Shown here piece after piece: positions 24,725-63,539 of a DNA stretch of 64,000 nt. Under the pieces are notes generated by a model. The model was not told the origin of the DNA and ran no database searches. It saw only the letters and a program-made list of their open reading frames with translations. Origin of the DNA: Dehalococcoidales bacterium (GTDB lineage Bacteria; Chloroflexota; Dehalococcoidia; Dehalococcoidales; Fen-1064); contig JADHXC010000008.1 of the NCBI GenBank assembly GCA_016783135.1, positions 309-64,308 on the forward strand. The letters run 5' to 3'. Every line of letters starts with the position of its first letter. Position 1 is the stretch's first letter. A program made the translations under genes and the position numbers.

Positions 24725-24757
24725 TCAATACACATAAGCAGAGAAAAGGAGAGCTGT

Positions 24758-26535: not shown

Positions 26536-26553
26536 TAAGGAGGGTACAGGAAT

Positions 26554-26772
26554 ATGGAATACCAGGTCGAAAAAGTGAAAGCCCCGGGCAGAGACGCAGT
26601 GGAATTACTGGGTCCCACCTATGAAGAGGGCCAACCCGAGGGTGAAGAAGTCGGTAAATGGCGACAGAAATTGTCCAGCCGCGAAGAAAAACTGAAGTAC
26701 CTGGAGACCGGTGAGCGGTACTGGTACTCAGATGACTGGTTCGGCAGCGAAAAGAGAAAGAATCCGGCCTAG
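26554..26772 (+). CDS. small charged hypothetical protein embedded in the acs operon
   Basis: 72 aa. Strong SD (AAGGAGGG) 8 nt upstream. Tight spacing: 18 nt after folD, 14 nt before acsD. No family recognised. Confidence 0.5.
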   Translation: MEYQVEKVKAPGRDAVELLGPTYEEGQPEGEEVGKWRQKLSSREEKLKYLETGERYWYSDDWFGSEKRKNPA

Positions 26773-26786
26773 AGAGGGGAACAGAG

Positions 26787-27731
26787 ATGGCTTTTGATAT
26801 TCCGAAAACATCCTACACCGGTAAGATAAAAGAAATATCGCTCGGCAAGGGGGACAAGGCCGTAGTGATCGGCGGCGAGACCGTCTACCCGTTCTACCTG
26901 TTCGAAGGTAAGATGCCACGCCAGCCAAGGATAGCTATGGAGGTGCTTGACTGTCCTCCACAGGAATGGGCTGAGGCTGCGCTGGAACCTTTCGCCGGTG
27001 TGACCGACGACCCTGTTGCCTGGGCAAAGAAGTGCATCGATGACTACGGGGCAGAGATGATTGCCCTTTCGCTGGAAAGCACCGACCCCAACGGACTTGA
27101 CCGCGGGGCTGATGAAGCCGCCGCAGTGGTGAAGAAGGTGGCTGATGCCATTGATGTACCTCTCCTCGTCTGGGGAACAGCCAATGTTGACAAGGATACC
27201 GAGGTACTCAGGGCAGTGGCCGAAGCTTGCCAAAACAAGAGCCTGACTATCGGGCCGTTACAGGAAGCGAACTACAAGCGTATTGGTGCCGCCGCAATAG
27301 CTTATAAACACACCGTGGTGACCTCCACCCCGATAGACATCAACCTGGCCAAGCAGCTCAATATCCTGCTGGGTAACCTTGGCGTACCTGATGGGCAGAT
27401 TGTCATCGACCCCACGGTAAGCTGCATCGGATACGGTATCGAATACGCCTATTCGGTGATGGAAAGAATGAGGATGGCCGGACTGACACAGCAGGACGAA
27501 AAGCTCCAGTTCCCCATCGTCTGCAACCTGGCCAAAGAGGTCTGGAAGTCCAAGGAAGTCCACCTACCGGATAACGAGATGAATATGGGAGACGCCAGGA
27601 AGCGTGGTATCCTGCTGGAAGCGATGTCCGCCATGACCCTGCTTCTGGCAGGTGGCGACCTGTTAGTAATGAGACATCCGGAAGCAATCAAGCTGGTCCG
27701 GGAGATGGTAGCTGAATTAACGGCTACATAA
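26787..27731 (+). CDS. acsD: corrinoid iron-sulfur protein small subunit (AcsD/CdhD)
   Basis: 314 aa, length and sequence like CoFeSP delta/small subunits. Sits in the acs context. Confidence 0.8.
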   Translation: MAFDIPKTSYTGKIKEISLGKGDKAVVIGGETVYPFYLFEGKMPRQPRIAMEVLDCPPQEWAEAALEPFAGVTDDPVAWAKKCIDDYGAEMIALSLESTDPNGLDRGADEAAAVVKKVADAIDVPLLVWGTANVDKDTEVLRAVAEACQNKSLTIGPLQEANYKRIGAAAIAYKHTVVTSTPIDINLAKQLNILLGNLGVPDGQIVIDPTVSCIGYGIEYAYSVMERMRMAGLTQQDEKLQFPIVCNLAKEVWKSKEVHLPDNEMNMGDARKRGILLEAMSAMTLLLAGGDLLVMRHPEAIKLVREMVAELTAT

Positions 27732-27778
27732 GTAGCTCACAGCCGCCTGGAAATATTGGAGAGGAGAGGAGTTGCATA

Positions 27779-29740: not shown

Positions 29741-29774
29741 ATGCCTGCGTTAAGAGAGATAAGGGAGGTATGAA

Positions 29775-31982
29775 ATGTCCAAGATAATTGCCTCGGCAGC
29801 TATCAGGGGTGCTCACAATATTGTCGGTAACGCCGAGAAGAAGTGGCAGGAGGCCATGGACAAGTGGAGCGCCAAAGAGCCTGTGGGTTTCCCAAATACA
29901 GCCTACTTCTTACCCATAATCTACGGTATGCTCGGTGAAAAAGTAGAGAACCTGGGGGATATGGAGCCGATTCTAAAACGATGTCGGGCCATGCTGCCCC
30001 CAATGGTCAAAGAAGTACATCCGCTGCCCTACCTGGCTCCAGCCCTTGACGCAGGGATGGCAACACTCTTCGCAGAAGAGATGGTAGAGGCTATCCGCTA
30101 CCTGGAGAATCCCAATTTCTATATACAGGGTGAGGATGTCAGCGATGACAACATCTGGCTAGGCGCTGCCGATGATGTTATCCTGAGAAAGCGCGGTGTT
30201 GAGTTCGTGGATGGCACGGCCCCGGGATTTGCCGCGATACTCGGTGCTGCTCCCACTACGGAAATCGCCGCAAACATTGCCCAGGAGCTTCTGGAAAAGA
30301 ACCTTTATGTCTTCATGGCTGGCAGATATAATGGTGTCAGTTTTGCCGAGCAGCTCGTTGAGGCCGGCGTGCAAATTGGCTGGCCAACAAGGCTGGTCTC
30401 CTTCGGTCCCGACACGAGCGCTGCCGTATTCGCCATGGGTTTTGCTACGCGTGCTGCCATGTCCTTCGGTGGTATGGAACCCGGAGACTATCGCAAGATA
30501 CTGATTTATAACAAAGACCGCGTCTTCGCTTTTGTGCTGCCAATGGGCTATGTAACCGACGAGTGGTACGCCAATGCCGCCGGTGTCATCAACTGGGGCT
30601 TCCCCGTCATCGCGGATACCCCGATACCGGAAGTATTACCCACTGGTATCTGCACCTATGAGCACGTTGTCTCCAACATACCCCACGATGAAATTGTAGC
30701 CAAAGCTGTTGAGGTACGTGGACTCAAGGTTACCGTCGCTGACGTACCGATTCCCGTAGCCTACGGCCCAGCTTTTGAAGGTGAGCGTGTGCGTGGCGAG
30801 GACATTTACCTGGAGTGCGGCGGAGGCCGGACTGCCATGGTAGAGTGGGTCACCTCGAAGCGAATGGACGAAGTTGAAGACGGACATGTTGAAATAATCG
30901 GTCCGGATATCGACAGCATCGAACCCGGTTCCCGGTTACCGCTGGCAATAGTAGTGGAGGTTGCCGGCAGGGAGTTCGAAGAGGACTACGAGCCTATCCT
31001 CGAGCGCCAGATTCACCACCTGATAAACTATGCCCAGGGTGCAATGCACATCGGCCAGCGAGACATCGCCTGGATAAGGGTGGGCAAGGGTGCCGTGGAG
31101 AAGGGCTTCAAACTGGAGCACATTGGCGCGCTACTCCACGCTAAAATCCACCAGGACTTCGGCCGGATATTTGACAAGCTCCAGGTTAAGCTCTATACCG
31201 AAGAAGACAAGGTAAAGGACATAATAGAAAAGGCACGTACGGTCTACTCCGAGCGTGACGCCAGAATTGAAGGTATGACCGACGAGACCACCGAGACCTA
31301 CTACTCCTGCACGCTGTGCCAATCTTTCGCTCCCAGCCACGTCTGCGTGGTCAGCCCCGAGAGGACCGGACTCTGTGGTTCATATAACTGGATGGACTGC
31401 AAGGCATCCTTCGAGATAAACCCCACCGGCCCGAATCAACCCGTGGAGAAGGGTGAGACAATCGATGCCAAGCTCGGCCAGTGGAAGGGTGTCAACGACT
31501 TCGTCTTCCAGGCATCGCGTGGTAAGATTGACCACTATAACTTCTATAGCATAATCAACGACCCGATGACCACCTGCGGATGCTGCGAGGCAATCGCGGC
31601 AGTCCTGCCGATGTGCAACGGCATCATGACCGTCAACCGCGAGTACAGCGGTATGACCCCGTGTGGAATGAAATTCACCACGCTGGCCGGGACAATCGGC
31701 GGCGGTATCAGCAGCCCGGGATTTGTAGGCCACGGTAAGTACAACATCTGCCAGAGGAAATTCATCATTGGCGATGGTGGCCTGCTGCGTATAGTCTGGA
31801 TGCCCAAGATGCTGAAGGAAGAGATAGCTGACAGACTGAATGCCAGGGCTGAGGAGATGGGTGTACCCAACTTGATGGATATGATTGCCGATGAATCCGT
31901 GGGTGAGACCGAAGAGGATATTCTCCCATTCCTGGAGGAGAAGGGACATCCCGCCCTCACCATGGACTCGATACTGGGCTAA
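29775..31982 (+). CDS. acsB: acetyl-CoA synthase (A-cluster subunit AcsB)
   Basis: 735 aa. A-cluster cysteines CTLCQSFAPSHVC...LCGS and the Cys-Gly-Cys motif TTCGCCEA. Confidence 0.9.
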   Translation: MSKIIASAAIRGAHNIVGNAEKKWQEAMDKWSAKEPVGFPNTAYFLPIIYGMLGEKVENLGDMEPILKRCRAMLPPMVKEVHPLPYLAPALDAGMATLFAEEMVEAIRYLENPNFYIQGEDVSDDNIWLGAADDVILRKRGVEFVDGTAPGFAAILGAAPTTEIAANIAQELLEKNLYVFMAGRYNGVSFAEQLVEAGVQIGWPTRLVSFGPDTSAAVFAMGFATRAAMSFGGMEPGDYRKILIYNKDRVFAFVLPMGYVTDEWYANAAGVINWGFPVIADTPIPEVLPTGICTYEHVVSNIPHDEIVAKAVEVRGLKVTVADVPIPVAYGPAFEGERVRGEDIYLECGGGRTAMVEWVTSKRMDEVEDGHVEIIGPDIDSIEPGSRLPLAIVVEVAGREFEEDYEPILERQIHHLINYAQGAMHIGQRDIAWIRVGKGAVEKGFKLEHIGALLHAKIHQDFGRIFDKLQVKLYTEEDKVKDIIEKARTVYSERDARIEGMTDETTETYYSCTLCQSFAPSHVCVVSPERTGLCGSYNWMDCKASFEINPTGPNQPVEKGETIDAKLGQWKGVNDFVFQASRGKIDHYNFYSIINDPMTTCGCCEAIAAVLPMCNGIMTVNREYSGMTPCGMKFTTLAGTIGGGISSPGFVGHGKYNICQRKFIIGDGGLLRIVWMPKMLKEEIADRLNARAEEMGVPNLMDMIADESVGETEEDILPFLEEKGHPALTMDSILG

Positions 31983-31998
31983 GAAAGGAGTCAGGAAT

Positions 31999-33345
31999 AT
32001 GGCACTTACCGGTATACAGATATTCAAGCTGCTGCCAAAGACGAACTGCGGCGATTGTGGAGTGCCCACCTGCCTCGCCTTTGCCATGAATTTGGCCGGG
32101 GGCAAGGCAGAACTATCGGCTTGCCCGCACGTCTCCGAAGAGGCAAAGGAGCAACTCGCTGAGGCCTCGGCACCTCCCATCAGGGCAGTTACCATCGGTA
32201 CCGGCCCCGAGGCGGTGAAGGTCGGTGGCGAGACGGTTATGTTCCGCCACGAAAAACGCTTCGAGAACCCGACGGCAGTAGCCGTACTCGTCAGCGATAC
32301 TATGTCTGATGCGGATGTTGACGGCAGGCTTCAGAGATTCAAGGAGCTCCAGTTTGAGAGAGTCGGCCTGCACCTCCGCCCCGAATTGGTGGCAGTCAAG
32401 AGCGAATCAGGGGACGCCGCCAAGTTCGGAGCCCTGGTCAGCAAGGTGGCCCAGAACAGCGATGCCAGCCTTATCCTGATGAGTGAAGACACAACTATTC
32501 TTGCTGCTGGTCTGAAGGAGTGCGCCGATAAGAAGCCGCTGGTCTATGGCGCGAGCAAAGACAACCTCGATGCCATGGCGGAGCTTGCCAAGGAGAACTC
32601 CTGCTCGATTGGTGTCAAGGCTGACGGACTCGAAGAGCTTTCCGAGCTCACCAAGAAGCTGATGGATGCCGGTGTTAATGATATTGTTATTGACTCCGGG
32701 GCCAGGACCGTTCGCAAGGTCTTCGAGGACCAGGTTATCACCCGAAACGCGGCACTTGCCAAAAAGTTCCGCCCTCTGGGGTTCCCCACGATTGCCTTCC
32801 CCTGTGAGATGACAGATAACCCGATGAAGGAAGCGATGATTTCCGCCATGCTCGTTGCTAAGTACGGTGGAATTATCGTTCTCTCTGACCTCTATGGAGA
32901 GAGTCTATTCCCTCTCCTCGTCGAACGGATGAACATCTTCACCGACCCCCAGAGACCGCTGGCAACGGAACAGGGCATCTACGATATTAACAATCCGGAT
33001 GAGAAATCTCCGGTCCTGATTACCACCAACTTTGCATTGACCTACTTCATCGTCTCCGGCGAAATAGACGGCAGCAAGGTACCCGGTCACCTCCTGGTGA
33101 TGGACACCGAAGGGCTTTCCGTAATGACCGCCTGGGCAGCAGGCAAGTTCGTGGCCGACCTTATCGGCCCGTTCGTTAAGAAGAGCGGCATCGAAGACAA
33201 GGTCAAGCACCGGAAGCTCATAATCCCCGGTTACGCCGCTGCGGAGAGTGGTGGCATTGAAGAGGAGCTTCCCGGCTGGGAGATAATGGTTGGCCCCAGG
33301 GACGCCGCCCACATTCCAGCCTACCTGAAATCTTGGAAAGCTTAG
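31999..33345 (+). CDS. acsC: corrinoid iron-sulfur protein large subunit (AcsC/CdhE)
   Basis: Starts MALTGIQIFKLLPKTNCGDCGVPTCLAFAM (4Fe-4S motif) after GAAAGGAG. The ORF-track N-terminal extension from 31885 overlaps acsB and was rejected. Confidence 0.9.
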   Translation: MALTGIQIFKLLPKTNCGDCGVPTCLAFAMNLAGGKAELSACPHVSEEAKEQLAEASAPPIRAVTIGTGPEAVKVGGETVMFRHEKRFENPTAVAVLVSDTMSDADVDGRLQRFKELQFERVGLHLRPELVAVKSESGDAAKFGALVSKVAQNSDASLILMSEDTTILAAGLKECADKKPLVYGASKDNLDAMAELAKENSCSIGVKADGLEELSELTKKLMDAGVNDIVIDSGARTVRKVFEDQVITRNAALAKKFRPLGFPTIAFPCEMTDNPMKEAMISAMLVAKYGGIIVLSDLYGESLFPLLVERMNIFTDPQRPLATEQGIYDINNPDEKSPVLITTNFALTYFIVSGEIDGSKVPGHLLVMDTEGLSVMTAWAAGKFVADLIGPFVKKSGIEDKVKHRKLIIPGYAAAESGGIEEELPGWEIMVGPRDAAHIPAYLKSWKA

Positions 33346-33354
33346 GAGGGAGCA

Positions 33355-34230
33355 ATGATTCTCATCGGAGAGAACATCAACATAATGTCCAAGACGCTCG
33401 GCCCGGCTCTCAGGGAGAGAAATGCTGCTCCCATCCAAAAGATGGCCAGAGCCATGACCGAAGCGGGAGTAGACTACCTTGATATCAACATCGGACCTGG
33501 CCGCAGGGCTGGTGACGAGATGATGGAATGGGCAGTCAAGACGGTACAGGAAGTAGTCGACATGCCCCTGTCACTCGATTGCACCAATCCCGTAGCAATC
33601 GAGGCCGGTCTCAAGGTCCACAAGGGGCGCGCGCTAATAAACTCTATATCCCTGGTCAGGATGGAAGAGGAGCTACCCCTGGTCACTAGGTATGATGCCG
33701 ACTTCATCGGGCTGCTCTGGGGACGAGAGGGTATGCCGAGAGATGCGGACGAACGCAGCATGATTGCCATGGAGCTTATGATGGCCGCCAACGAGATGGG
33801 CATATCCACCGAGACCATCTGGTTTGACCCCATCGCCACCCCGGCGAGCAACGTGGACACAAACCAGGTCATACCCTGCCTGGAGTTCATGAGCATACTC
33901 CACGATATTGCTCCCGGCGGCAAGTCAGCAGTGGGCCTGTCCAATGTCTCCAATGGTACACCCGACCATCTCCGCCCCTACCTCAACCGCACCTACCTGA
34001 TGATGCTCATGAAACATAATATACATTCGGCGATAGTGGACGCATTCGATGCGGAGCTGATTAAAACAGCCCGTGGTGAAAGGTCTGAACGTGTCGCCAT
34101 GATTCACCGCATAATGGATGGTGAAATGCCTGACCTCGCTTCCCTCGACCCGGAAGAGGCAAAGTACGCCAAGTCGGTGCGGGTGGTAACCGGAGAGGTC
34201 CTTTACTCCCACTCCTGGCTGGACGTGTAG
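33355..34230 (+). CDS. acsE: methyl-THF:corrinoid/Fe-S protein methyltransferase
   Basis: 291 aa pterin-binding (MeTr) type: ILIGENIN, DYLDINIG, LSLDCTNP, GLSNVS. Confidence 0.85.
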   Translation: MILIGENINIMSKTLGPALRERNAAPIQKMARAMTEAGVDYLDINIGPGRRAGDEMMEWAVKTVQEVVDMPLSLDCTNPVAIEAGLKVHKGRALINSISLVRMEEELPLVTRYDADFIGLLWGREGMPRDADERSMIAMELMMAANEMGISTETIWFDPIATPASNVDTNQVIPCLEFMSILHDIAPGGKSAVGLSNVSNGTPDHLRPYLNRTYLMMLMKHNIHSAIVDAFDAELIKTARGERSERVAMIHRIMDGEMPDLASLDPEEAKYAKSVRVVTGEVLYSHSWLDV

Positions 34231-34265
34231 TACCGGCAACACTCCGATAGTATCCGATAGTATTC

Positions 34266-34310
34266 GTGGAGGCCGCAATCCCGGAATAACCGACCGGGGA
34301 CGGCCTCCAC
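34266..34310 (+). other. nested GC-rich hairpin in the acsE-DUF3786 spacer
   Basis: GTGGAGGCCG (34266-34275) pairs with CGGCCTCCAC (34301-34310). Inner stem TCCCGG/CCGGGA. Preceded by the tandem 10-mer CCGATAGTAT x2 (34244-34263). Confidence 0.4.
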
Positions 34311-34361
34311 AGGTTTACAGCGGGTGCCACCACTGCAAGGCTCCCAGGGAGAAAGAAGACA

Positions 34362-35000
34362 GTGCTGCCTGTGGACGATAACCGGACAGTATACAACCTG
34401 AATGTTGCTTTCGGGGTTGTTCGTGACCGTCTGGCTGCGCTAGACCTCGAAGAGCAGTCCCGCCTCAGCGACTCCCGGTACGAGAGCGTGGACTCTGGTA
34501 TTACCGTCACTGTCGACTACCTGGGTAGACCTTATGTCATATCATTCCCGGACCTCACCGTCTTGCCGGAAGGGGATGCTGACGAACTCCCGCTGCGAGA
34601 AAAAATCCTGGTGCTGCACTATCTTGCCCAGGCCGGAGGCACCACAACAACAAACAAGCTCATTACCTACCGGGACCTTCCCGGGGGTGTGGTCTACTTC
34701 CCTACCTTCTCCAAGAGAACCACTGACCAGCTCACCAGACGGTTCGGCAGAGAACCGGAACTACTGGTGGAAGCCAGTAAGGCACTGGGCGGCCGCGAAA
34801 CTGGCCTGGGAGATACCGGTGTGGTCATCAACGGCTTCAGCCGTGTCCCGATAACGCTCGTTCTCTGGCATGGCGACGAGGAACTGGCACCACAGATGAA
34901 CATACTCTTTGATACTAACATTACAGACTACCTCGAATCCGAGGACGTAACCGTGCTCTGCGAAGTCCTCACCTGGAAACTGGTACGGTATTCACGATAG
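34362..35000 (+). CDS. DUF3786-domain protein
   Basis: 212 aa with a GTG start. Blocks ITYRDLPGGVVYFPTFSKRT and NILFDTNITDYLESEDVTVL match my recollection of DUF3786, a family seen in acs clusters. Confidence 0.65.
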   Translation: MLPVDDNRTVYNLNVAFGVVRDRLAALDLEEQSRLSDSRYESVDSGITVTVDYLGRPYVISFPDLTVLPEGDADELPLREKILVLHYLAQAGGTTTTNKLITYRDLPGGVVYFPTFSKRTTDQLTRRFGREPELLVEASKALGGRETGLGDTGVVINGFSRVPITLVLWHGDEELAPQMNILFDTNITDYLESEDVTVLCEVLTWKLVRYSR

Positions 35001-35461: not shown

Positions 35462-36142
35462 ATGGCGGACAACGTTTCACTTTTATTTGCTTTTGGCGCC
35501 GGGCTGTCCTCCTTTCTGTTGCCATGTGTCATACCTCTGGTCCCTGTGTATTTCGCCAGTCTCTACGGTCCGGAGATATTCGACGCCAGCACCAGAAAGC
35601 GTTTCCCGATATTCCTGCACTCCGTCTGCTTTGTCCTCGGCTTCACACTGATATTCAGCGGGGTGGGAGCCGGTGCCGGATTGTTGGGCGTGGTACTCAG
35701 CCCCAGTTCGTCACTGGTACGCTGGACTGCCGGTAGTCTGCTGATACTCTTCGGCATAATCATGCTGGCCGCGCTCAAAGTACCCTGGCTTAACTTCGAA
35801 AAGCGGCTGGCCCCTTCAAAGAGTATCGCCACCGGCTACCTGCGTTCCTTCCTTACCGGGGCGGTATTCAGCGTGGCGTGGACACCATGTGTCGGACCGG
35901 TGCAGGGCACCGTTCTGACCGTTGCCTGGACTTCGCAGTCGGCCTGGGAAGGTGCTTACCTGCTGGCCGTCTATTCCCTGGGCCTGGGGCTGCCTTTCCT
36001 AGTGTTAGGAATCGCCTTTGATTTCGTCGCTCCACTGGTCAAGAAGCTTAATCGCTATTCCCGGGTGATATACATGGTCAGTGGCAGCCTACTGGTAATC
36101 ATGGGGGTACTGGTGCTGGGTAACTGGCTGGTCTGGTATTAG
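35462..36142 (+). CDS. ccdA: cytochrome c biogenesis / thiol-disulfide transfer membrane protein CcdA (DsbD family)
   Basis: 226 aa, about 6 TM segments. Conserved membrane Cys motifs LLPCVIPLVPVY and WTPCVGPV. Confidence 0.8.
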   Translation: MADNVSLLFAFGAGLSSFLLPCVIPLVPVYFASLYGPEIFDASTRKRFPIFLHSVCFVLGFTLIFSGVGAGAGLLGVVLSPSSSLVRWTAGSLLILFGIIMLAALKVPWLNFEKRLAPSKSIATGYLRSFLTGAVFSVAWTPCVGPVQGTVLTVAWTSQSAWEGAYLLAVYSLGLGLPFLVLGIAFDFVAPLVKKLNRYSRVIYMVSGSLLVIMGVLVLGNWLVWY

Positions 36143-36236
36143 GCCTGATACCAAAACTGGTATCAGAGGGCGGTTGGAGTTACAATTATATATCACCAGA
36201 TGGTGTACCAGTTATCCACCAGGAGGAGGCCAAGAC

Positions 36237-36569
36237 ATGAGTGACATTCTCGATGAAGCACACGGCATTGCCCAGTGCAGGTCCTGTCCCTGGTATCGCT
36301 CCTGCGCGACGCCGATGAGGTTGACTGTAGAAGACATCCGCCGCCAACTGGAATCAACCACAGCCGGGATGGGTGCCCCGCCGTCTGAGGATATCGGGGG
36401 TATCCAGAATCTCCTCGGTGGAATGGCAACCGCTGCCCAGAACTCGATACTTGAGGGCTGTCCGGTATTCATTCAGCGCCTGCGCTCCAGCCCCGAGCTT
36501 GCTCGACGCATCAAGGAGATGATGCAGAACTGGGCCCAGCAGGATGGGGAACAGCAAGACCAGGGATAA
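36237..36569 (+). CDS. small cytoplasmic Cys-motif protein, function unknown
   Basis: 110 aa from the ATG after AGGAGGAGG. N-terminal CRSCPWYRSC motif, later EGCPVF. No signal peptide. Confidence 0.5.
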   Translation: MSDILDEAHGIAQCRSCPWYRSCATPMRLTVEDIRRQLESTTAGMGAPPSEDIGGIQNLLGGMATAAQNSILEGCPVFIQRLRSSPELARRIKEMMQNWAQQDGEQQDQG

Positions 36570-41934: not shown

Positions 41935-42135
41935 ATGGCCCTGGTGGACTTCCCGAAGTGCCACCCGGAGTACTGCAAGGATGGAGTCTGTCTCGCCGCC
42001 GAAGCGTGCCCCCGCAAGCTAATCAAACAGGAGCATCCCGGAGAGATACCGATGACCAACCCGTCCCTCTGCCAGGCGTGTGGAGATTGTGTCCGTGCCT
42101 GTCCCATGAAGGCTATCCGGACAGTAATGATGTAA
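41935..42135 (+). CDS. small 4Fe-4S ferredoxin-domain protein
   Basis: 66 aa. CHPEYCKDGVCLAAEACP plus the canonical CQACGDCVRACP. Confidence 0.6.
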   Translation: MALVDFPKCHPEYCKDGVCLAAEACPRKLIKQEHPGEIPMTNPSLCQACGDCVRACPMKAIRTVMM

Positions 42136-42146
42136 GCACCTTAGAC

Positions 42147-42701
42147 ATGACAGGAAAGATACTAAAGAAAGCAACAAGCAGCGTGTCATACGACGACACT
42201 ATAGACGAACAGACTTGTCTTCGTCAGGAGACCCGGCGTGCCCTGAAGGGTTTCAGCCGTAAGAGACGTAACCTGATTCCCATCCTGCAGAAGGTCCAGG
42301 GAAGGCTCGGATACCTTCCTCTTGAGGCTATGAAAGAAATCGCTGAATTTCTCGGCATACCGGAGATAGACGTCTACGGAGTGGTAACATTCTACAACCA
42401 GTTCCGCCTCAACCCGCCGGGAAATCACGCTATCAGGGTGTGCCTCGGTACAGCCTGTCACATGAAGGGTGGTTACATCACGCTGGATGCCTGGAAACGG
42501 CGACTGGAGATAAACGAGGGCGAGACTACGCCGGACCGCGAGTTTGACCTTGACACCGTGGCCTGCGTAGGCTGCTGTACCATGGCACCGGTGACCGTAG
42601 TTGACGATATTCCTGAAGCCAAAGTGGAACCTACAAAGGTAGATGGGATACTGCTCAAGTTCAAGCTTGAGAGAGAATCCGAGGAACAGAAAGACCAGTG
42701 A
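42147..42701 (+). CDS. NuoE/HydC-type thioredoxin-like [2Fe-2S] subunit
   Basis: LIPILQKVQ, TFYNQF, CLGTACHMKG, CVGCCTMAP. Start at ATG 42147; the ORF-track 41958 extension overlaps the ferredoxin gene. Confidence 0.85.
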   Translation: MTGKILKKATSSVSYDDTIDEQTCLRQETRRALKGFSRKRRNLIPILQKVQGRLGYLPLEAMKEIAEFLGIPEIDVYGVVTFYNQFRLNPPGNHAIRVCLGTACHMKGGYITLDAWKRRLEINEGETTPDREFDLDTVACVGCCTMAPVTVVDDIPEAKVEPTKVDGILLKFKLERESEEQKDQ

Positions 42702-44614
42702 AGGAAATCATATCATCCGATATCGCCTCTTCTTTCCAGGAGTTAAAGGCACGTGCCGAATCCCGCTGGAGAGAGATGTTTAACTCCGACAAACCCGTAA
42801 TACTGGTCGGTACGGCTACCTGCGGTCGTGCTGCCGGTGCCCTGGAAGTTCTTCATACACTCAGGGCGGAATTGAGAAGGCAGGGGCTGGACTGCCCCGT
42901 TATTGAGGTTGGCTGCATGGGCCACTGCTACGCTGAGCCACTGGTGGTGATTCACAAGCCGGGGTACCCTGCAATCTGCTACGGCTTCGTCAATCCGGTT
43001 ATTGCCGAGAGGCTGGTCAAAGAGTTTATCGCCGGCGATAACGCCTGCCTGGAATTCGTCCTCGGCGCGATGGAAGAGAACGACCTCATCCCCAGTTTCG
43101 CCGATTTCCCCCGCGCCGGCTACGAGAAAAAGGTGGTACTGAGGAACTGTGGGCACATTGACCCCACCGATATTGACCACTATATTGCCAGCGGCGGTTA
43201 CTCAGCACTGGACAAGGCGCTCCGGATGTCTCCCGAGGATATCATCGACAAAGTGAAAACATCGGGACTGAGGGGCAGGGGTGGGGCTGGTTTCGCCACC
43301 GGAATGAAATGGGAGATATGCCGTCAGGCGCCTGGAAAGCCACGGTACTTAGTCTGTAACGCCGATGAGGGCGACCCGGGTGCTTTCATGGACCGGTCAA
43401 TCCTGGAAAGCGACCCTCACTCCGTGATTGAAGGGATGGTCATCGCCGCCCACGCTATTGGAGCACGCCACGGCTACATCTACGTCCGCTCCGAGTACCC
43501 GCTGGCGGTGAAGCGGGTGCGGACTGCCCTCCGCCAGTCTCGCAAAGCTGGCTTCCTCGGCAGATATATTCTGGGGAGCGATTTCAGCTTCGATATCCGC
43601 CTGTTTAAGGGCTCCGGAGCCTTTGTCTGCGGCGAGGAGACGGCGCTGATTGCCTCACTGGAAGGGAAAGCAGGAATACCCCGCCACCGCCCGCCCTACC
43701 CGCCGACCAGCGGCCTCGACGGAAAGCCCACCATCGTCAACAACGTTAAGACCCTGGCCGCGATACCGCCCATTATTAAGAATGGCGCAGAATGGTTTAC
43801 CGGCATCGGCACGGAGAAGACCAAGGGTACCGCCGTCTTCGCCCTGGCCGGCAAGGTGGTCAACACCGGGCTCGTGGAGGTCCCCATGGGCACCACACTG
43901 CGGCAGGTCATCTTCGACGTCGGCAGCGGCATCCCCGGCGGAAAGCAGTTCAAGGCAGTCCAGATTGGCGGGCCTTCCGGTGGTTGTCTACCGGAATCGG
44001 CGCTGGACCTGCCTGTCGACTTCGATTCGTTGACCGAAGCCGGTGCCATGATGGGCTCCGGGGGGATGGTAGTCCTCGATGAGGACGATTGCATGGTGGA
44101 GATTGCGCGCTATTTCCTCGAATTCACCCAGCGGGAGTCATGCGGCAAGTGCACCTTCTGCCGTCTCGGGACCAGACAGATGCTGGCTATACTCGACGAC
44201 ATCACCCGGGGACAGGGCAGGGATGAAGATATTGACACGTTGATGATACTGGCTGAGGCCATAAGAGCCGGCTCTCTCTGTGGTCTGGGGAAAACGGCAC
44301 CCAATCCGGTGCTGACCACGCTGCGTTATTTCGAGGACGAGTACCGGGCCCACATCAGAGAGGGACGCTGCCCGTCACTGATGTGTCGCGACCTTATAGC
44401 CTACTATATCCTGCCGGATAAGTGCGAGCGTTCCTGCGACGCCTGCGTGGGCAGCTGTACCGTGGAAGCCATATCCCCCAATCGGAAGAGGATTAAGGTC
44501 ATCGACCAGGACAAGTGCGTGAAATGTGATACCTGCCGGACCGCCTGCCCACCGCAGTACGATGCCATAGTGAAATTATCGCCGCCCAGTGAAGTACCCG
44601 CTGCGGCAAAGTAG
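42698..44614 (+). CDS. NuoF/HydB-type NAD(P)H-binding FMN/Fe-S flavoprotein subunit
   Basis: 638 aa. N-terminal 2Fe-2S thioredoxin-like domain, GRGGAGF FMN site, ESCGKCTFCR (N3-type 4Fe-4S), C-terminal 2x[4Fe-4S] (CVKCDTCRTACP). Confidence 0.9.
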   Translation: MKEIISSDIASSFQELKARAESRWREMFNSDKPVILVGTATCGRAAGALEVLHTLRAELRRQGLDCPVIEVGCMGHCYAEPLVVIHKPGYPAICYGFVNPVIAERLVKEFIAGDNACLEFVLGAMEENDLIPSFADFPRAGYEKKVVLRNCGHIDPTDIDHYIASGGYSALDKALRMSPEDIIDKVKTSGLRGRGGAGFATGMKWEICRQAPGKPRYLVCNADEGDPGAFMDRSILESDPHSVIEGMVIAAHAIGARHGYIYVRSEYPLAVKRVRTALRQSRKAGFLGRYILGSDFSFDIRLFKGSGAFVCGEETALIASLEGKAGIPRHRPPYPPTSGLDGKPTIVNNVKTLAAIPPIIKNGAEWFTGIGTEKTKGTAVFALAGKVVNTGLVEVPMGTTLRQVIFDVGSGIPGGKQFKAVQIGGPSGGCLPESALDLPVDFDSLTEAGAMMGSGGMVVLDEDDCMVEIARYFLEFTQRESCGKCTFCRLGTRQMLAILDDITRGQGRDEDIDTLMILAEAIRAGSLCGLGKTAPNPVLTTLRYFEDEYRAHIREGRCPSLMCRDLIAYYILPDKCERSCDACVGSCTVEAISPNRKRIKVIDQDKCVKCDTCRTACPPQYDAIVKLSPPSEVPAAAK

Positions 44615-44618
44615 ACAC

Positions 44619-45290
44619 ATGAAGACAATATCTCTGACAATTGACGGCCAGAAAATAACCGCCAACGAGAGTGAAATCCTTCTCTGGGTTGCCCTCGATA
44701 ACGGGTTCTATATCCCCAACCTGTGCGCCATGAGGGACGATCACGAGCCGATGGCTGCCTGTCGGTTGTGCTTTGTTGAGGTAGCGGGCAGGGACAGACC
44801 GGTCACAGCATGCACCGAGACGGTCACTGAAGGCATGACAGTCAATACCAGAGGAGATAACGCTCTCAGTCTGGCCCGTCAGGGCTTTGAGCTTCTCATG
44901 GCGTCTCACGCCCTGGACTGCGCTCACTGCCCCAGGAATGGTTCCTGCGAACTACAGAAGATAGCCCGGCACCTCCACGTGAAACTGAAGTCAAAACACC
45001 TCAGAAAGCTGGAACGCAACCTTCCCATCGACACAAGCCACCCCTTGTTCGTCTATGACGCCAACAAATGCGTGCTGTGCGGACGGTGTGTCCGGGTGTG
45101 CCGGGAGCACTCCGGTACCGGCGTACTCGGCTTTGCCCACCGGGGCTTCGAGCGGCGGGTCACCACCTTTGCCGATGGACCAATGGACACTTCAGGATGC
45201 GACCACTGTACCGAGTGCATAGCAGTCTGCCCGACCGGGGCTCTGGTACTCAAGGAAGAGCAACCACCGAAGGCCGGGGCAACGGTCTAA
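44619..45290 (+). CDS. NuoG/HydA N-terminal-type Fe-S subunit lacking any catalytic domain
   Basis: 223 aa. 2Fe-2S_thioredox-like CRLCFVEV, His-ligated cluster HALDCAHCPRNGSC, CVLCGRCVRVC, CDHCTECIAVCP. Ends before any H-cluster or molybdopterin domain. Confidence 0.8.
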   Translation: MKTISLTIDGQKITANESEILLWVALDNGFYIPNLCAMRDDHEPMAACRLCFVEVAGRDRPVTACTETVTEGMTVNTRGDNALSLARQGFELLMASHALDCAHCPRNGSCELQKIARHLHVKLKSKHLRKLERNLPIDTSHPLFVYDANKCVLCGRCVRVCREHSGTGVLGFAHRGFERRVTTFADGPMDTSGCDHCTECIAVCPTGALVLKEEQPPKAGATV

Positions 45291-45772: not shown

Positions 45773-46378
45773 CTACCTCGCCAAGCAGAGGTCTATCGCC
45801 CGACGGTACATCTCAATGGGGACCGCCCCAACGAGTGGAAGCCGGCCGCCGATTATCGCCAGGGGAACCCCCCAGCCCTCGTACTCACTCCGGCCTTCTT
45901 CGTATTCGGCCAGGACCTCGTTCTCCTGTGAGCCGCTACTGTAATCTGCCCGGAACCGCTCAACATCAAGTCCGGCATCCGCGGCCAGGCTGGTCAGGAC
46001 TTCCCCATCACTGATATCACGGCAGTCCCGGAAGAATGCCTTGAAGACAGCATCGTGGAAACGCTCGAACGCCTCTTTGCCCTGGAGTAAGGCGCACTTA
46101 CCCGCTATCTGGGCCGGCATGCTGGAGGAAGGATAGGGCAGATTATCATCCCAGTGCCGGAATACCTCTTCTTCGTTGTTGGCACGCTCACGGGCCTCGG
46201 TACTGTGTGGCGAAATCAGCCTCCCCGGTATATTCTCAATCAGCAGGGGGAAGCTCTTCCAGGTGATGTTGATACTGTCACCGTACCGCTCTTTGACTCT
46301 CTGCAGCCGAACTGCCGCGACATAGCACCAGGGTCAGATGTAGTCCGAATAGACGGTTATCCCGACGGGCGCATTCAT
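45773..46378 (-). CDS. DsbA/FrnE-family thiol-disulfide oxidoreductase with in-frame UGA at the CxxC position (candidate selenoprotein, U-P-W-C)
   Basis: One open frame of 201 codons apart from a TGA at 46334-46336. Context VYSDYI-TGA-PWCYVAAVRL. C-terminal GWGVP cis-Pro loop. Hairpin GCAG-UUCGG-CUGC lies 18 nt 3' of the UGA. Confidence 0.65.
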
Positions 46379-46390
46379 CACAATACAGCC

Positions 46391-47383
46391 TTAATTCAGT
46401 TCCAGGTTCAGGTTCCCCATGAACGGGTTTCGCCTGGGCTCCCCCGCCGCCTGCCAGTAGGCCAGCGCCCGGTCAATCTCCGCCAGCACCTTTTCCTTCT
46501 CCTCAGGGAACTTACCGTCGACCTCCCCCAGGTAGAAATTCCAGGCGAAATCGCTGGTAATCAACTCGGAGGTCACATCAAGGGCCTCCACAAACACACG
46601 TATTTCCTTCAGAACACCTTCGATAGACTGGACGTGGTATTCTTCGCGCCGGGCCTTCTCGTGTATCGGTGTCCCCGGAGCAGGATGGAAAGTACGCAGC
46701 CTGATGAACCGGGGATTGACCTCATTCAGCACCCGGGCCGAGTTCAGGGCATGCTGCTCCCAGCGCTCCCTGCCTCCCAACCCCGGCATAACGTACTCCG
46801 AGACCTCAAAACCAGCCTCGACCGCCTTCCTGCCGGCCTGTATCTGCTCCTCAGCGGTAACGCCCTTCTGAATATAGGCCAGGAGCTCGTCATCTCCGGT
46901 TTCCAGTCCGATGTGGAGTCGGGAAAGCCCCGCATCTCGCAACCGCTTCAGCTCTTCGGGCTTCTTCCGGTAAACGGTCTTTGCCCGGGCGTAGGTACAC
47001 ACCTTTTCCAGCGTGGGAAACGTCCCGCAGAGAAACTCCAGTATCCCGGCAAGAGGCTCGGTCTTCATTATCATGCTGTCCGAGTCCTGCAGAAATGCGT
47101 TCCTGACACCGTCATCCTGGAGCCAGAGGATACCGTTGAGCTGGGCAACCTGACCAACCGTATAACCGCCGCGTTCCGACCAGCGGTATGTTTCCTCCAC
47201 CAGCCTCCGGACAGCCAGGATTCCCTCCTTAACCTCCTCGATGGGACGTATCCGGAACTTCTGACCCTTGAAGACGGAGCAGAACTCGCACCGGTTCCAG
47301 GGGCAGTTCTCCGTGACCCTTACCAGCAGCGAATACGCCTCGGAAGGAGGCCTGATTGGACCGACCATGTACGGCATGCTCAT
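46391..47383 (-). CDS. radical SAM protein (subfamily not recognised)
   Basis: 330 aa. Cys triad ENCPWNRCEFC, LHIGLETGDDELL, PGLGG. Stop lies 12 nt before the DsbA-like start. Confidence 0.8.
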   Translation of the reverse strand: MSMPYMVGPIRPPSEAYSLLVRVTENCPWNRCEFCSVFKGQKFRIRPIEEVKEGILAVRRLVEETYRWSERGGYTVGQVAQLNGILWLQDDGVRNAFLQDSDSMIMKTEPLAGILEFLCGTFPTLEKVCTYARAKTVYRKKPEELKRLRDAGLSRLHIGLETGDDELLAYIQKGVTAEEQIQAGRKAVEAGFEVSEYVMPGLGGRERWEQHALNSARVLNEVNPRFIRLRTFHPAPGTPIHEKARREEYHVQSIEGVLKEIRVFVEALDVTSELITSDFAWNFYLGEVDGKFPEEKEKVLAEIDRALAYWQAAGEPRRNPFMGNLNLELN

Positions 47384-53822: not shown

Positions 53823-55133
53823 TCAGGCTATGGTCCCTTCTTCTTTGAGTCGCGCGATATCCTCCCAGCTATAGCCCAACTCCAGAAGAATCTCCTCAGT
53901 GTGCTGGCTGAACTCCGGAGACGGGAGTCGGTAGGTGGCCGGGGTCTCACTGAGATTAACGGGATTGGCGATTACCTTCATCGGCCCGTATGTCGGGTGG
54001 TCAACGGGCAGGAACATGTTGTTCGCCTCTGCCTGGACATCATTGACAACATCCACGGTGTTTTGCATGGGAGCGTATGGCAACCCGACCAGGTGAGGTG
54101 TCCATTCATCCAGAGTCCTGGTGAGAAAGGCGTCTCGCAGGATAGAGTATAGCTCACCGTTGTTCTCGGTCCTGGCCTCACTTGATATAAACCTCGGGTC
54201 TTCCTCAAGGTCAGGGCGCTCGATTACGCGGCAGAACTCCGCCCAGAACCGGTCCGACTGCAGCGCATTGAAACCGATTACCTTGCCGTCTTTCGTGGTG
54301 TAACGATTCGCCAGGGGATTGGGTGAGTTCTCACGATAGAACTCGCCGAGACGGGTTATTGCTTCCTGGGCTTCACCGATAAGCTCGTCCCGGCGCTTCT
54401 TCAGCTCTTCATCCAGCACCTCGGGGGGATTGAGCCTGTACTCCACGATATCCTGCCCGGTAGCCAGGGCGGCCGAAACGTCGAAGGTCAACTGGTAGAT
54501 GCCGGTATGCAATAAGGAAATGTCAATCTCCTGGCCTATCCCGGTCTTGTCACGGTGGTAGAGGGCCATCACAATGCCGAAGGCAAGCCCGAGACCGGCA
54601 ACAACATCACCGAACGCCGGTCGTGGGGCTGGTCCCGAGAGTCCGGGGACGGTCAGAGTGCTTGTAACCCCTGACCTCCCCCAGTAGACGGTGGTATCAT
54701 AGGCCGGGGTCTCACGGTTGGGCCCTTGTTTGCCGTGCCCGGTCAGGCAGCCGTAGATGATCTTCGGGTTGATGCGACGCAGGGCATCGTAGCTCACCCC
54801 GTGTTTCTCCTTCTCCGGGAGACGCAGGTTGGTTACGAAGACATCCGTCTCTTTGACTAGCTGGTAGATTATGCTCCGCCCCGACTCATGGGAAATGTCC
54901 ACCGCCAGGCTGCGCTTGTTACGGTTGAAGGCTTCCCAGTTGTAGTTGATTTCAGAGGGTACACCGGCACCGCCACCAAATCCCGCCTGAAGCGCCCTCC
55001 AGGAATCGCCCCTGGTGGCGTGCTCCACGTGAATCACATCCGCACCAAAGTCACCCAGATGCCGGGCACACATGGGTACAGCGGCCACCTGGGAAACGTC
55101 CAGAACCTTGATACCTTCCAGTACAGCCTTCAT
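53823..55133 (-). CDS. family III (CaiB/BaiF) CoA-transferase, paralog 1
   Basis: Starts MKAVLEGIKVLDVSQVAAVPMCARHLGDFGADVIHVE. ATG 55133 follows GGAGAG; the ORF-track TTG at 55148 is less likely. Confidence 0.85.
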   Translation of the reverse strand: MKAVLEGIKVLDVSQVAAVPMCARHLGDFGADVIHVEHATRGDSWRALQAGFGGGAGVPSEINYNWEAFNRNKRSLAVDISHESGRSIIYQLVKETDVFVTNLRLPEKEKHGVSYDALRRINPKIIYGCLTGHGKQGPNRETPAYDTTVYWGRSGVTSTLTVPGLSGPAPRPAFGDVVAGLGLAFGIVMALYHRDKTGIGQEIDISLLHTGIYQLTFDVSAALATGQDIVEYRLNPPEVLDEELKKRRDELIGEAQEAITRLGEFYRENSPNPLANRYTTKDGKVIGFNALQSDRFWAEFCRVIERPDLEEDPRFISSEARTENNGELYSILRDAFLTRTLDEWTPHLVGLPYAPMQNTVDVVNDVQAEANNMFLPVDHPTYGPMKVIANPVNLSETPATYRLPSPEFSQHTEEILLELGYSWEDIARLKEEGTIA

Positions 55134-55198
55134 CCCGGTTCTCTCCAATCTTCTTTATCATTCATTGGTTAGATACGAGTTGTAGCAGCATGACATCC

Positions 55199-56485
55199 CT
55201 AAAACATGCCCCCCTGCTGCTCCGGCAGGGCTTCGGTACCGATTATGCCGAGCTCTTCGAGCTCGGTAATCTCCTCCTCAGACATGCCGAGTATTCCCCC
55301 AAAAACATAACGGTTGTGCTCACCGAGGCACGGAGCGGGCATCCGTATACTCCCCGGTGTCCTGGAGAACCGGGCGTACATGCCGACATAGGGATGCGTG
55401 CCCGCTTCGGGGTGGGTGACTGTCTCAAAGATGCCCCGTTCGTTTAGATGTGGTTCCTCGGTCAGTTCCCTGGCGTTGAGAACCGGCCCAGCGGGGACGT
55501 CTGCCGGTTGCAGGATGCGCATTACATCGTAATGGTCATGCTGCACAGTCCAGTCCTCAATCAGCCTGTCCAGTTCATCCTGGTGGCGGTACCTGCTCGA
55601 CAGGTCTGAGAACCGGGTATCCCCTGTCCAGGGTGGCTGCTCCAGCGCCTGACAGAACCGCTCCCAGACTGCGTCTGAAGAGACGGCAATCACCACCCAG
55701 CTATCTTCACCCCGGCATCGGTAGCAGCCGTGGGGTGCCATTGAGGGGTGGCGGTTGCCCATCCGTTCACGTACCCGACCGTTCATCGTGTAGTCCATCA
55801 CGGAATCCGCGTTGAACGAGATAAGACCTTCTACCTGTGAGAGGTCAATATGCATTCCCCGGCCGGTTCGCCGGCGGTAGTGCAGGGCCGACAGGACAGC
55901 AAAAGCAGCGTTCATACCGGACAGTGGGTCACCGTAGGACAGCCCGCTCTGCAACATCGGCTCTTCACCGGGATAACCGGTGAGATACGCCATACCGCTC
56001 ATGCAGTCTATCGTCTGCCCGAAGGCAATATGGTCCCTGTCCGGGCCGGTCCTGCCCAGGGCCGGCAATGACATCATGATGAGCCGGGGGTTGATTTCAG
56101 TGAGCACCGGGTAATCAATATCCAGGCTTTCCATGACCCTGGGGCTGTAGTTCTCCAGGACAACGTCACTGATTTCAACCAGCTTCCTGAAGACCTCTTT
56201 GCCCCGCCCGGTACGCAGGTCAAGCGTGATTCCATACTTGTTCCGGTTCTGCAGGTTGAAACCGGCTGAACGATTGTACGGCTTTTCAACGGATGCCAAC
56301 TCCGGCATCCGCTCAATAAGTATTGGTGTAACCCTGGCAGGCCCTCGCCACGGGTCGATGTGCCCCAGCGATTCTATCTTGATTACCTCAGCCCCCATGT
56401 CGGCCAGTAACCGGCTGCCCATGGGTCCGGCAAACCACATGGAGAGGTCAAGTACCCGCAGTCCTTCCAGCGGCAGTCCAGGCAT
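55199..56485 (-). CDS. family III (CaiB/BaiF) CoA-transferase, paralog 2
   Basis: LEGLRVLDLSMWFAGPMGSRLLADMGAEVIKIE, full length 428 aa, GGAGGG SD. Confidence 0.85.
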   Translation of the reverse strand: MPGLPLEGLRVLDLSMWFAGPMGSRLLADMGAEVIKIESLGHIDPWRGPARVTPILIERMPELASVEKPYNRSAGFNLQNRNKYGITLDLRTGRGKEVFRKLVEISDVVLENYSPRVMESLDIDYPVLTEINPRLIMMSLPALGRTGPDRDHIAFGQTIDCMSGMAYLTGYPGEEPMLQSGLSYGDPLSGMNAAFAVLSALHYRRRTGRGMHIDLSQVEGLISFNADSVMDYTMNGRVRERMGNRHPSMAPHGCYRCRGEDSWVVIAVSSDAVWERFCQALEQPPWTGDTRFSDLSSRYRHQDELDRLIEDWTVQHDHYDVMRILQPADVPAGPVLNARELTEEPHLNERGIFETVTHPEAGTHPYVGMYARFSRTPGSIRMPAPCLGEHNRYVFGGILGMSEEEITELEELGIIGTEALPEQQGGMF

Positions 56486-56517
56486 TTTCCCTATCCCTCC
56501 GCGAGGCGCAGAATCGC

Positions 56518-57714
56518 CTAAATAACGCCCGTCTCTCGCAGCTTCACCAGGTCTTTATTATTGTAACCGAGACGACGGCAGTAGATTTCCTCGTTATGCT
56601 CACCCAGCAGCGGTGCCGGCTTTAATTCATAAGGCAAATCACCCAATCCAAACTGGGCACCGGGATACCGGACCTTTCCGGTAAAGGGATGCTCAACATC
56701 TACGAAATAGCCTCTCTCGTTGAGATGCTCAGAGTTGAGTAACCGGTCGGCTGCAGCTGGTATTCCGAAAGGAATCCTCCGTTTCTGCGCTTCGCTCAGC
56801 AACTCCTCCTGGTCGTGCTCGAGTAGCCAGGGAATTAACGTAGCAATAAGCTCGTCCACATTCTCGGTGCGGTGGATTCTGGTAAGGAACCTCTCGTCGC
56901 TGGCTAGCTCCGGTTTCCCCATCCACTCACAAAGGGATTGCCACTGGCTATTCGTAACGGCGATAGCCCCGATATAGCCGTCCCGACAGGGTAGTATCGA
57001 ACCGGGTGGGGGCAGTACCATATTACCGATTCTGCCGGTAATCCTCTCGTGGTAGTGATATATTTGCGTAATATTCATCTGGATGTAGAGCACGGCATCC
57101 ATCAGGGATATATCCACGTGTTGTCCGACTCCGGTCAATTCCCGACCATGAAAAGCGGTCATTGTCCCGACACCTCCGAAGAGACCGCTGACAAACTGCG
57201 CTTGGTTCCCGCCGGGTTTAAGTGGCTCGCGGCCCGGATGGCCGATGATGCTCATCCAGCCTCCCATGGCATCGGCAACAATCTCGGTGGCCTTGTAGTC
57301 CCGATAAGGACCGGTCTGCCCGAAGTTGGAAATGGAGGTCATAACCAGACCGGGGTTTATCCTCTCCAGGCTCTCGTAGTCCAGGCCCAGAGACGGCATC
57401 ACCCTGGGGTTGAAGTTCTCCACGAGGATGTCAGCGTCCGCCACCAGTTCCCTGAATATTTTTATCCCGGTCTCAGATTTCAGGTTCAGAGTGACACCAC
57501 GCTTGTTGGTGTTCAGGTAGAGAAACAGGCCACTCTTTTCCGGATGAGGGTCATCCTTGTAGAAGGGACCAATCCTCCTGGCGCCGTCACCGGTACCGGG
57601 CCTCTCCACCTTGACCACCTCGGCGCCATAGTCGGCGAGCAACTTGGTGCAGTAGGGCCCGGCAATGTAGTGAGTTACATCCAGTACCCTGACGCCGGAC
57701 AGAGCCTGCTCCAC
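56518..57714 (-). CDS. family III (CaiB/BaiF) CoA-transferase, paralog 3
   Basis: VEQALSGVRVLDVTHYIAGPYCTKLLADYGAEVVKVE. GTG 57714 follows GAGAAGGGAGAG. The ORF-track ATG 57810 would lie on top of the predicted promoter. Confidence 0.8.
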   Translation of the reverse strand: MEQALSGVRVLDVTHYIAGPYCTKLLADYGAEVVKVERPGTGDGARRIGPFYKDDPHPEKSGLFLYLNTNKRGVTLNLKSETGIKIFRELVADADILVENFNPRVMPSLGLDYESLERINPGLVMTSISNFGQTGPYRDYKATEIVADAMGGWMSIIGHPGREPLKPGGNQAQFVSGLFGGVGTMTAFHGRELTGVGQHVDISLMDAVLYIQMNITQIYHYHERITGRIGNMVLPPPGSILPCRDGYIGAIAVTNSQWQSLCEWMGKPELASDERFLTRIHRTENVDELIATLIPWLLEHDQEELLSEAQKRRIPFGIPAAADRLLNSEHLNERGYFVDVEHPFTGKVRYPGAQFGLGDLPYELKPAPLLGEHNEEIYCRRLGYNNKDLVKLRETGVI

Positions 57715-57800
57715 AGTCTCTCCCTTCTCCGTTCCGTGGGAATATGTCAGAAACCGTCCCGCACGTGGGGACGGTCTTCCCTGGGGTGGGGTTACCCACG

Positions 57801-57829
57801 AGTATACCAATCGGTACTGGCTAAATCAA
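57801..57829 (-). promoter_or_regulatory. sigma70-type promoter of the CoA-transferase operon
   Basis: Minus strand: TTGATT (57824-57829), 17 nt, TATACT (57801-57806). The -35 lies inside the tandem operator repeat. Confidence 0.5.
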
Positions 57830-63353: not shown

Positions 63354-63539
63354 TCAGGTGGAACCGCCTGGAGCACAGTCACCCACCGAAGAACCCGTGG
63401 TGGCAAATACCGAGAAGACACGCTGTGAGTGCTCGGCCCCACACCTGGGACACTGTGTATCCCTGTCACTGTCGGCCATGCTCCGGCGGAGCTCGAACTT
63501 CTGGCCGCACTTCATGCATTCATACTCGTAGATCGGCAT
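63354..63539 (-). CDS. FmdB-family zinc-ribbon protein
   Basis: 61 aa. MPIYEYECMKCGQKFEL...QCPRCGAEHSQRVFS, Ser/Gly tail. Confidence 0.75.
   Translation of the reverse strand: MPIYEYECMKCGQKFELRRSMADSDRDTQCPRCGAEHSQRVFSVFATTGSSVGDCAPGGST

Follow-up and report, generated by a model that had tools for sequence, protein, structure and literature searches.

A probable selenocysteine-containing DsbA/FrnE-like oxidoreductase gene of a Dehalococcoidales bacterium, truncated in public annotation

A minus-strand gene at positions 45773–46378 of the DNA analysed here, a 64-kb stretch (hereafter the window) that is an ordinary part of the chromosome of a Dehalococcoidales bacterium, very probably encodes a 201-residue cytoplasmic thiol-disulfide oxidoreductase of the DsbA/FrnE-like kind, with selenocysteine (Sec, U) as the attacking residue of its CxxC motif (U-P-W-C). 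The locus is an unannotated new member of a known selenoprotein family, and its description is a re-annotation that brings no new class or mechanism. We observed directly the reading frame, the DSBA domain and fold, the interchange of Sec, Cys and Ser codons among relatives, the conservation of both flanks of the in-frame TGA and of a hairpin downstream of it, and the use of UGA as a stop elsewhere in the window.

The minus strand from ATG 46378 to TAG 45773 is a single frame of 201 sense codons plus the stop, without frameshift. It holds one internal stop, the TGA at 46336–46334 (codon 15, context SDYI-[TGA]-PWC), and the conceptual translation across this codon reads MNAPVGITVYSDYI*PWCYVAAVRLQRVKERYG.... 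The same frame, with the same coordinates and translation, had been reported in a sequence-only reading of the window and is reproduced here. The gene and its parts are the following.

45773–46378 (minus strand): full candidate selenoprotein gene, delimited by the frame, the Pfam DSBA match across the TGA, the FrnE/SCO1869 alignment and the model of the orthologue P0003
46334–46336 (minus strand): UGA codon 15, taken as selenocysteine, replacing the N-terminal nucleophilic Cys of CxxC (codon census, six assemblies)
46325–46336 (minus strand): redox motif U-P-W-C, codons 15–18, at the end of strand β1 and the start of helix α1 (alignment, P0003 model)
45863–45868 (minus strand): cis-Pro loop (Val171-Pro172) of the thioredoxin fold, in EGWGVPLAII (G170/P172 invariant)
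45773–46120 (minus strand): 115-aa fragment from standard gene callers, the sole gene called here in six public assemblies

The 115-aa fragment is the longest conventional ORF in the frame. Its product is encoded on 11 public contigs and matches Pfam DSBA/Thioredoxin_5 in public assemblies, and it contains neither β1 nor the active site nor α1. The active site and the first β-α unit are missing from it; the sequence-only reading had held that it makes no sense as a stand-alone protein. The expectation that standard annotation would miss the locus is borne out by public callers, which give fragments of 115–190 aa. No NCBIfam model above cut-off covers the FrnE-like selenoprotein subfamily, and public annotations are therefore truncated; the Rcas_1661 thioredoxin-like (seleno)lipoprotein family (NF041057) reaches 49.7 bits, over the C-terminal part only, against a cut-off of 190. 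The whole 606-nt gene was read in six places (four ENA and two Logan assemblies, independent and from different samples and runs), and in 6/6 its sequence equals that of the window (0 mismatches), TGA at codon 15 included. The TGA at 46334–46336 is thus genuine and not an assembly error.

With Cys set at codon 15, the protein matches Pfam DSBA (PF01323) at E=3.2e-24 over residues 7–195, covering profile positions 2–190 of 191. Because this match spans codon 15, the domain is complete only when the TGA is translated through. The nearest solved relatives by sequence are Streptomyces coelicolor SCO1869 (3gl5) and Deinococcus radiodurans FrnE (5cnw), in both of which the first Cys of CPWC aligns with the UGA (..WSDIACPWCY.. 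of SCO1869/FrnE against ..YSDYI[U]PWCY.. of the window protein), in agreement with the earlier claim that the stop falls on the nucleophilic Cys of a DsbA/FrnE-like motif. The proposed cis-Pro loop EGWGVPLAII was likewise found, at residues 167–176, opposite the stretch GVPFFVL in the alignment with SCO1869 and FrnE; G170 and P172 are invariant in the family alignments, in which Cys95 and Cys198 vary little or not at all.

The structure was modelled on a Cys orthologue of 67% identity (P0003; AF2, 50-sequence alignment), with pLDDT 94.7 and pTM 0.91. In the model of this orthologue, a strand spans residues 5–11 and helix α1 starts from residue 16, giving a thioredoxin fold with a helical insertion, an active site at the α1 N-terminus and a cis-Pro loop. 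A Foldseek comparison of the model with the PDB returned YjbH, Nitrosomonas 2in3, FrnE, SCO1869, kappa-class GST and HCCA isomerase, with TM values of about 0.75–0.80 for the top folds (YjbH, 2in3, FrnE and SCO1869). A signal peptide of the periplasmic E. coli DsbA type is absent from the window protein: the active site at residues 15–18 comes right after β1 and leaves no space for one, so that the protein is predicted to be cytoplasmic and FrnE-type rather than a periplasmic DsbA.

Comparison with these solved proteins reveals both shared and distinct features. FrnE (5cnw, 5xwh) and SCO1869 (3gl5) resemble the window protein in being cytoplasmic without a signal peptide, in their near-N-terminal CPWC, in the helical insertion within the thioredoxin fold and in the GVP cis-Pro loop, whereas they carry Cys in place of Sec and share only ~20% identity with it. 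FrnE is also longer (~250 aa) and bears a C-terminal CxxxxC tail, while the window protein ends in ..DLCLAR with the single conserved Cys198. In structure, the modelled orthologue comes closest to YjbH (6ghb, 6gho), a DsbA-like adaptor for Spx degradation. The adaptor function of YjbH is not known to depend on redox chemistry; its identity to the window protein is ~20%, and nothing in the window context suggests Spx.

A protein search returned two classes of relatives, full-length and N-terminally short gene calls. The full-length class (~203 aa, Dehalococcoidia) is 55–68% identical to the window protein. The short class comprises about fifty gene calls of 116–190 aa and includes the closest matches (86–93% identity); many of its members have their start placed at the M or V of 'Y[VM]AAVRL', where the first start codon past the TGA position lies. 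At the DNA level, 7 genome loci and 80 metagenome loci were compared, and the motif could be located in 57. The aligned codon is TGA in 40/57 loci, TGT in 7/57, TGC in 4/57, TCA in 5/57 and TCC in 1/57, which by residue amounts to 40 TGA, 11 Cys and 6 Ser forms. The TGA forms range in identity to the window protein from 95% down to ~35%, and this breadth supports the claim of a selenoprotein gene at 45773–46378. In all 40, a start codon lies 10–14 codons upstream of the TGA, there is no other stop or frameshift, and CC follows the TGA; the coding sequence is conserved on both flanks, as in 'EISDYL*PWCYPAAVRL' and 'VFSDYL*PWCYNAAVRL'. Within this sequence comparison, what counts most is that both TGA flanks are conserved over a wide range of divergence. 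That the stop is always TGA and never TAA or TAG is weak evidence alone, since no other stop can be reached from a Cys codon by a single substitution.

Gene order further relates the different forms to one another. Within Dehalococcoidales, the arrangement YceD / radical-SAM – DsbA-like – DUF5679 / HoxU-like is common to loci with TGA (window, L001, L005, L008/9, L015), with TGT (L002, L004, L007, L011–14) and with TCC (L003), so that these forms are true orthologues differing at one codon. This one-codon difference between syntenic orthologues is what conventionally defines a Sec/Cys pair; the sequence-only reading had named such pairs as a check, and syntenic orthologues do carry TGT/TGC at the TGA codon. 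In an NJ tree, built from residues downstream of the site only and from a sampling seeded with Sec-type sequences, U is the commonest and deepest state, and Cys/Ser forms are nested in at least five places.

Two of the Cys forms (TGC; L030 position 755 and L031 position 1009) are near-identical around the site to a Sec form (TGA; L044 position 2543), including a GCCGC-GGU-GCGGC hairpin, and the sequences suggest that Sec and Cys were exchanged recently, leaving a SECIS remnant behind. In six relatives, Ser (SPWC) occupies the Sec/Cys position, encoded by TCA in five and TCC in one; the codons aligned with window 46336–46334 lie at L003 3043, L016 1683, L017 2543, L018 1685, L020 624 and L021 2543. 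Ser is also found at the same position in protein clusters P0042, P0033 and P0048, and is unusual at the attacking position of a thioredoxin-fold protein. TCA is one step from TGA. The SECIS-like hairpin is kept in the Ser forms L016 and L017 (−10 to −11 kcal/mol) and lost in L018, L020 and L021. In other families, Cys forms derived from Sec forms have been described as retaining remnants of a SECIS element (PMC1794560, Fig. 4); here, the pattern is seen in the Cys form L030 and the TCA forms L016 and L017.

The element that might direct Sec insertion lies shortly downstream of the TGA.

46322–46298, core 46318–46303 (minus strand): SECIS-like hairpin inside the coding sequence, from the minimum-energy fold and the comparison of TGA homologues

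With the T of TGA numbered 0, the core stem pairs GCGGC (46318–46314, G18–C22) with GCUGC (46307–46303, G29–C33) around the loop AGUUCG (46313–46308, A23–G28), and the segment encodes the peptide ..V-A-A-V-R-L-Q-R... The stem is short, with a 5-bp core that includes one G·U, and is lengthened in the minimum-energy fold of the window by C17:G35 and U16:A36 across a bulged A34. The hairpin drawn in the sequence-only reading, GCAG-UUCGG-CUGC, exists at 46315–46303 as an alternative register of the same GC-rich segment; comparison nevertheless favours the shifted register, in which 82.7% of cells hold standard pairs across 26 distinct TGA homologues, against 55.8% in the register drawn earlier (slide +3) and 27–65% over the slid registers. 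In the ungapped alignment register, the two outer pairs show compensatory changes between C-G and U-A, pair 16:35 in 4 sequences and pair 17:34 in 7, brought about by coupled amino-acid changes (Pro...Arg versus Val...Gln/Lys). Covariation is limited because codons constrain both hairpin arms. In a 'YNAAVRL' sub-group, the stem-loop is GCCGC-GGU-GCGGC, whose 3' arm lies nearer by three bases. The loops are AGUUCG, GUGC, GGUCCG or GGU, all of them containing GU, and at the family level a stem-loop whose small apical loop contains G is found shortly after the UGA.

The stability of this hairpin distinguishes the TGA forms from the others. Relative to synonymous recodings, TGA forms show an excess of 4.7 kcal/mol with window codon usage and 6.2 kcal/mol with uniform codons, compared with 0.5 kcal/mol in Cys forms and 0.7 kcal/mol in Ser forms with window codon usage, and 1.9 kcal/mol in Cys and Ser forms pooled with uniform codons. 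The difference between TGA and non-TGA forms (Mann-Whitney p=6e-4, uniform codons) and the enrichment of AAVRL in TGA forms (38/40 versus 6/17 others, Fisher p=4e-6) have p-values that are indicative only, because the sequences are related, and kinship also inflates shuffle-based hairpin statistics. The AAVRL enrichment fits a SECIS constraint acting on the protein sequence. Support for the hairpin comes from comparison only, and the window's own hairpin is without statistical weight: it is no better than chance against dinucleotide shuffles (z=−0.08), and its −8.3 kcal/mol does not rise above the null of synonymous recodings (mean −8.4, p=0.47). An Rfam search of 46150–46420 at E<=10 gave chance snoRNA matches only and no SECIS family. 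The archetypal bacterial SECIS is that of E. coli fdhF. The window hairpin resembles it in lying in the coding sequence shortly 3' of the UGA, in its small G-U apical loop and in a GC-rich upper stem of the GCAG/CUGC type, and differs from it in its non-homologous sequence, its shorter stem and the lack of an Rfam model match.

A Cys codon mutated to TGA, leaving a non-functional remnant or the 115-aa fragment, would be another history for the locus, since a single substitution turns TGT or TGC into TGA; it would also sit well with gene callers that give the fragment only and with a window hairpin that alone is not significant. Such a history is effectively refuted by conservation and is very improbable: the TGA persists in 40 loci to ~35% identity, with conserved flanks and no more stops or frameshifts, the NJ tree of the sampled family has U as its commonest and deepest state, and the fragment would be left without the active site and the first β-α unit. 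A sequencing or assembly error is refuted by the six independent assemblies, which are identical across the 606 nt. Genome-wide decoding of UGA as an amino acid (code 4 or code 25) is refuted in turn by the stops of the 39 well-supported, Pfam-matched genes of the window (TAG 20, TAA 11, TGA 8); with 8/39 ending in TGA, UGA is an ordinary stop codon in this organism and the code is not reassigned. Error and reassignment together are left with practically no probability.

The UGA could instead be decoded without Sec, either by near-cognate or suppressor read-through that inserts Cys or Trp, or by regulated termination with a conditional full-length product. In E. coli, termination at UGA-C is leaky, and CC after all 40 TGA codons would suit this reading, as would the finding of no Sec machinery gene in the 64-kb window or the fetched loci. 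It accounts poorly for a downstream hairpin that is conserved specifically in TGA forms. The codon also falls where members of a catalogued selenoprotein family classically carry Sec or Cys (PMC1088965), and Dehalococcoidia are documented users of Sec (PMC13326102). On a UGA-to-Cys recoding system in Dehalococcoidia, the passages searched in Mukai et al. 2017 (PMC5424206) hold nothing relevant to the locus. Decoding without Sec is judged improbable, and Sec at codon 15 is by far the most probable reading.

By analogy with the established bacterial pathway (PMC9312934, PMC1794560), from which Sec insertion, SelB binding, redox direction and substrate are all inferred, the Sec-containing protein would arise and act as follows. 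The ribosome would arrive at UGA codon 15, where SelB·GTP·Sec-tRNA(Sec) would be tethered by the hairpin, which starts 13–15 nt downstream and presents a GU-containing loop, and Sec would be inserted at UGA15 in place of termination. In the folded protein, Sec15 would lie at the N-terminus of helix α1, facing the cis-Pro172 loop, and would alternate between a selenolate and a selenenylsulfide with Cys18. This redox centre may reduce or isomerise substrate disulfides.

None of selA, selB, selD and tRNA-Sec was found within the 64-kb window or any fetched locus. ARAGORN on the window and 87 loci detected no tRNA-Sec, Rfam at gathering score on the whole window gave tRNA-His only, with no SECIS and no tRNA-Sec, and a scan of 434 kb for the SelD N-terminal motif gave no match. 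A scan of the window for TGA-interrupted ORFs, followed by Pfam on ~49 ORFs, yielded no second selenoprotein candidate; every split ORF proved to be an antisense shadow of a real gene or to reflect an ordinary upstream stop, and was rejected.

The window also carries ftsA/ftsZ, nrd and fab genes, feoB and NuoE/NuoF/HoxU-like genes. A Wood-Ljungdahl cluster occupies 22092–35000 (plus strand; genes listed at 22092–34230) and comprises CooC-like ATPases, formate-THF ligase, FolD, CODH, ACS, both CFeSP subunits, a pterin-binding methyltransferase and DUF3786. The window holds no gene for formate dehydrogenase, the enzyme that is typically the selenoprotein in this pathway. At 63354–63539 (minus strand) lies a 61-aa FmdB-family zinc ribbon (CxxC...CxxC) in an all-Cys form; for some bacteria, the FmdB family is catalogued among the selenoproteins, with the motif UxxU (PMC13188914). 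Three tandem CoA-transferase family III paralogues of 441, 428 and 430 aa are found at 53823–57810 (minus strand). In addition, a CcdA/DsbD-type transmembrane thiol-disulfide transporter at 35462–36142 (plus strand) has no adjoining thioredoxin-like partner gene, and is followed at 36200–36540 (plus strand) by a small ORF whose product contains CxxC (MSDILDEAHGIAQCRSCPWYRSC...).

Two neighbours of the candidate selenoprotein gene recur with it.

46391–47383 (minus strand): radical-SAM gene, 330 aa, co-directional (PF04055); order with the DsbA-like gene kept in L001–L015
45384–45527 (minus strand): DUF5679 zinc-ribbon gene, 47 aa, downstream of the candidate selenoprotein gene (PF18930)

The TAA of the radical-SAM gene lies 12 nt before the ATG of the candidate selenoprotein gene, and the two are probably in the same operon. 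Their order is conserved in the Dehalococcoidales loci L001–L015, for TGA, TGT and TCC forms alike. The radical-SAM protein has the cluster motif CPWNRCEFC, which is CX4CX2C and not the usual CX3CX2C; Pfam matches its residues 139–209 only, and no NCBIfam model reaches its cut-off. The DUF5679 protein (MEAYCVKCRAKREMKDAKPITMKNGKPATQGVCPTCGTKMFRIGKS) keeps 89–100% identity in loci whose DsbA-like proteins reach only 57–68%, and is therefore far more conserved than its neighbours. Converging on this probable operon from the plus strand (41958–45290) is a trio made up of a NuoE-like gene, a NuoF-like gene (638 aa) with additional ferredoxin domains and a gene resembling HoxU or the N-terminal part of NuoG (233 aa), next to which there is no hydrogenase or formate-dehydrogenase catalytic subunit. 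The least ordinary aspects of the locus are the conserved radical-SAM – DsbA-like – DUF5679 arrangement and the recurrent Ser (SPWC) replacements. It is conceivable, though unlikely, that the three genes form an undescribed module, in which the Sec-containing FrnE-like protein would be a dedicated redox partner of the radical-SAM protein (perhaps also of the DUF5679 protein) rather than a general oxidoreductase, and in which Sec would be ancestral and repeatedly replaced by Cys or Ser. If so, the protein could work with its second Cys alone, given the Ser (SPWC, TCA) forms.

The family to which the gene belongs has been known for two decades. A DsbA-like protein (COG2761) with a UxxC motif was reported as a new selenoprotein family in Sargasso Sea data by Zhang, Fomenko and Gladyshev in 2005, with nine DsbA-like sequences that had predicted SECIS elements (PMC1088965). 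DsbA-like selenoproteins were later recorded in Anaeromyxobacter, Desulfovibrio and Desulfotomaculum genomes (PMC1794560), a 2016 census counted 45 of them in 41 organisms (PMC5029168), and a 2026 review lists 'DsbA-like protein form 1, PF01323, UxxC' (PMC13188914). Dehalococcoidia as a class are rich in selenoproteins, and BSepDB records MAGs from it with 49 and 46 selenoprotein genes (PMC13326102). The window protein shares with this family the PF01323 domain, the predicted Sec at position one of CxxC and widespread Cys homologues, and its gene shares the stem-loop with G in the apical loop shortly after the UGA; the dynamic Sec/Cys interchange of the family is likewise seen among the window relatives. 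Nothing categorical separates the window protein from the family, whose representatives (e.g. NIP15863.1) were compared by description only. What marks this member is its occurrence in Dehalococcoidales, the conserved radical-SAM – DsbA-like – DUF5679 arrangement and the relatives with Ser (SPWC).

For the family, the locus adds a clean syntenic case of Sec/Cys/Ser interchange, with decaying SECIS remnants in non-Sec forms. For Dehalococcoidia, it indicates that gene callers and NCBIfam models still truncate a probable selenoprotein, of which public assemblies hold fragments of 115–190 aa only. Because only such fragments are listed, redox-protein inventories and selenoproteome counts of these abundant subsurface bacteria are underestimated.
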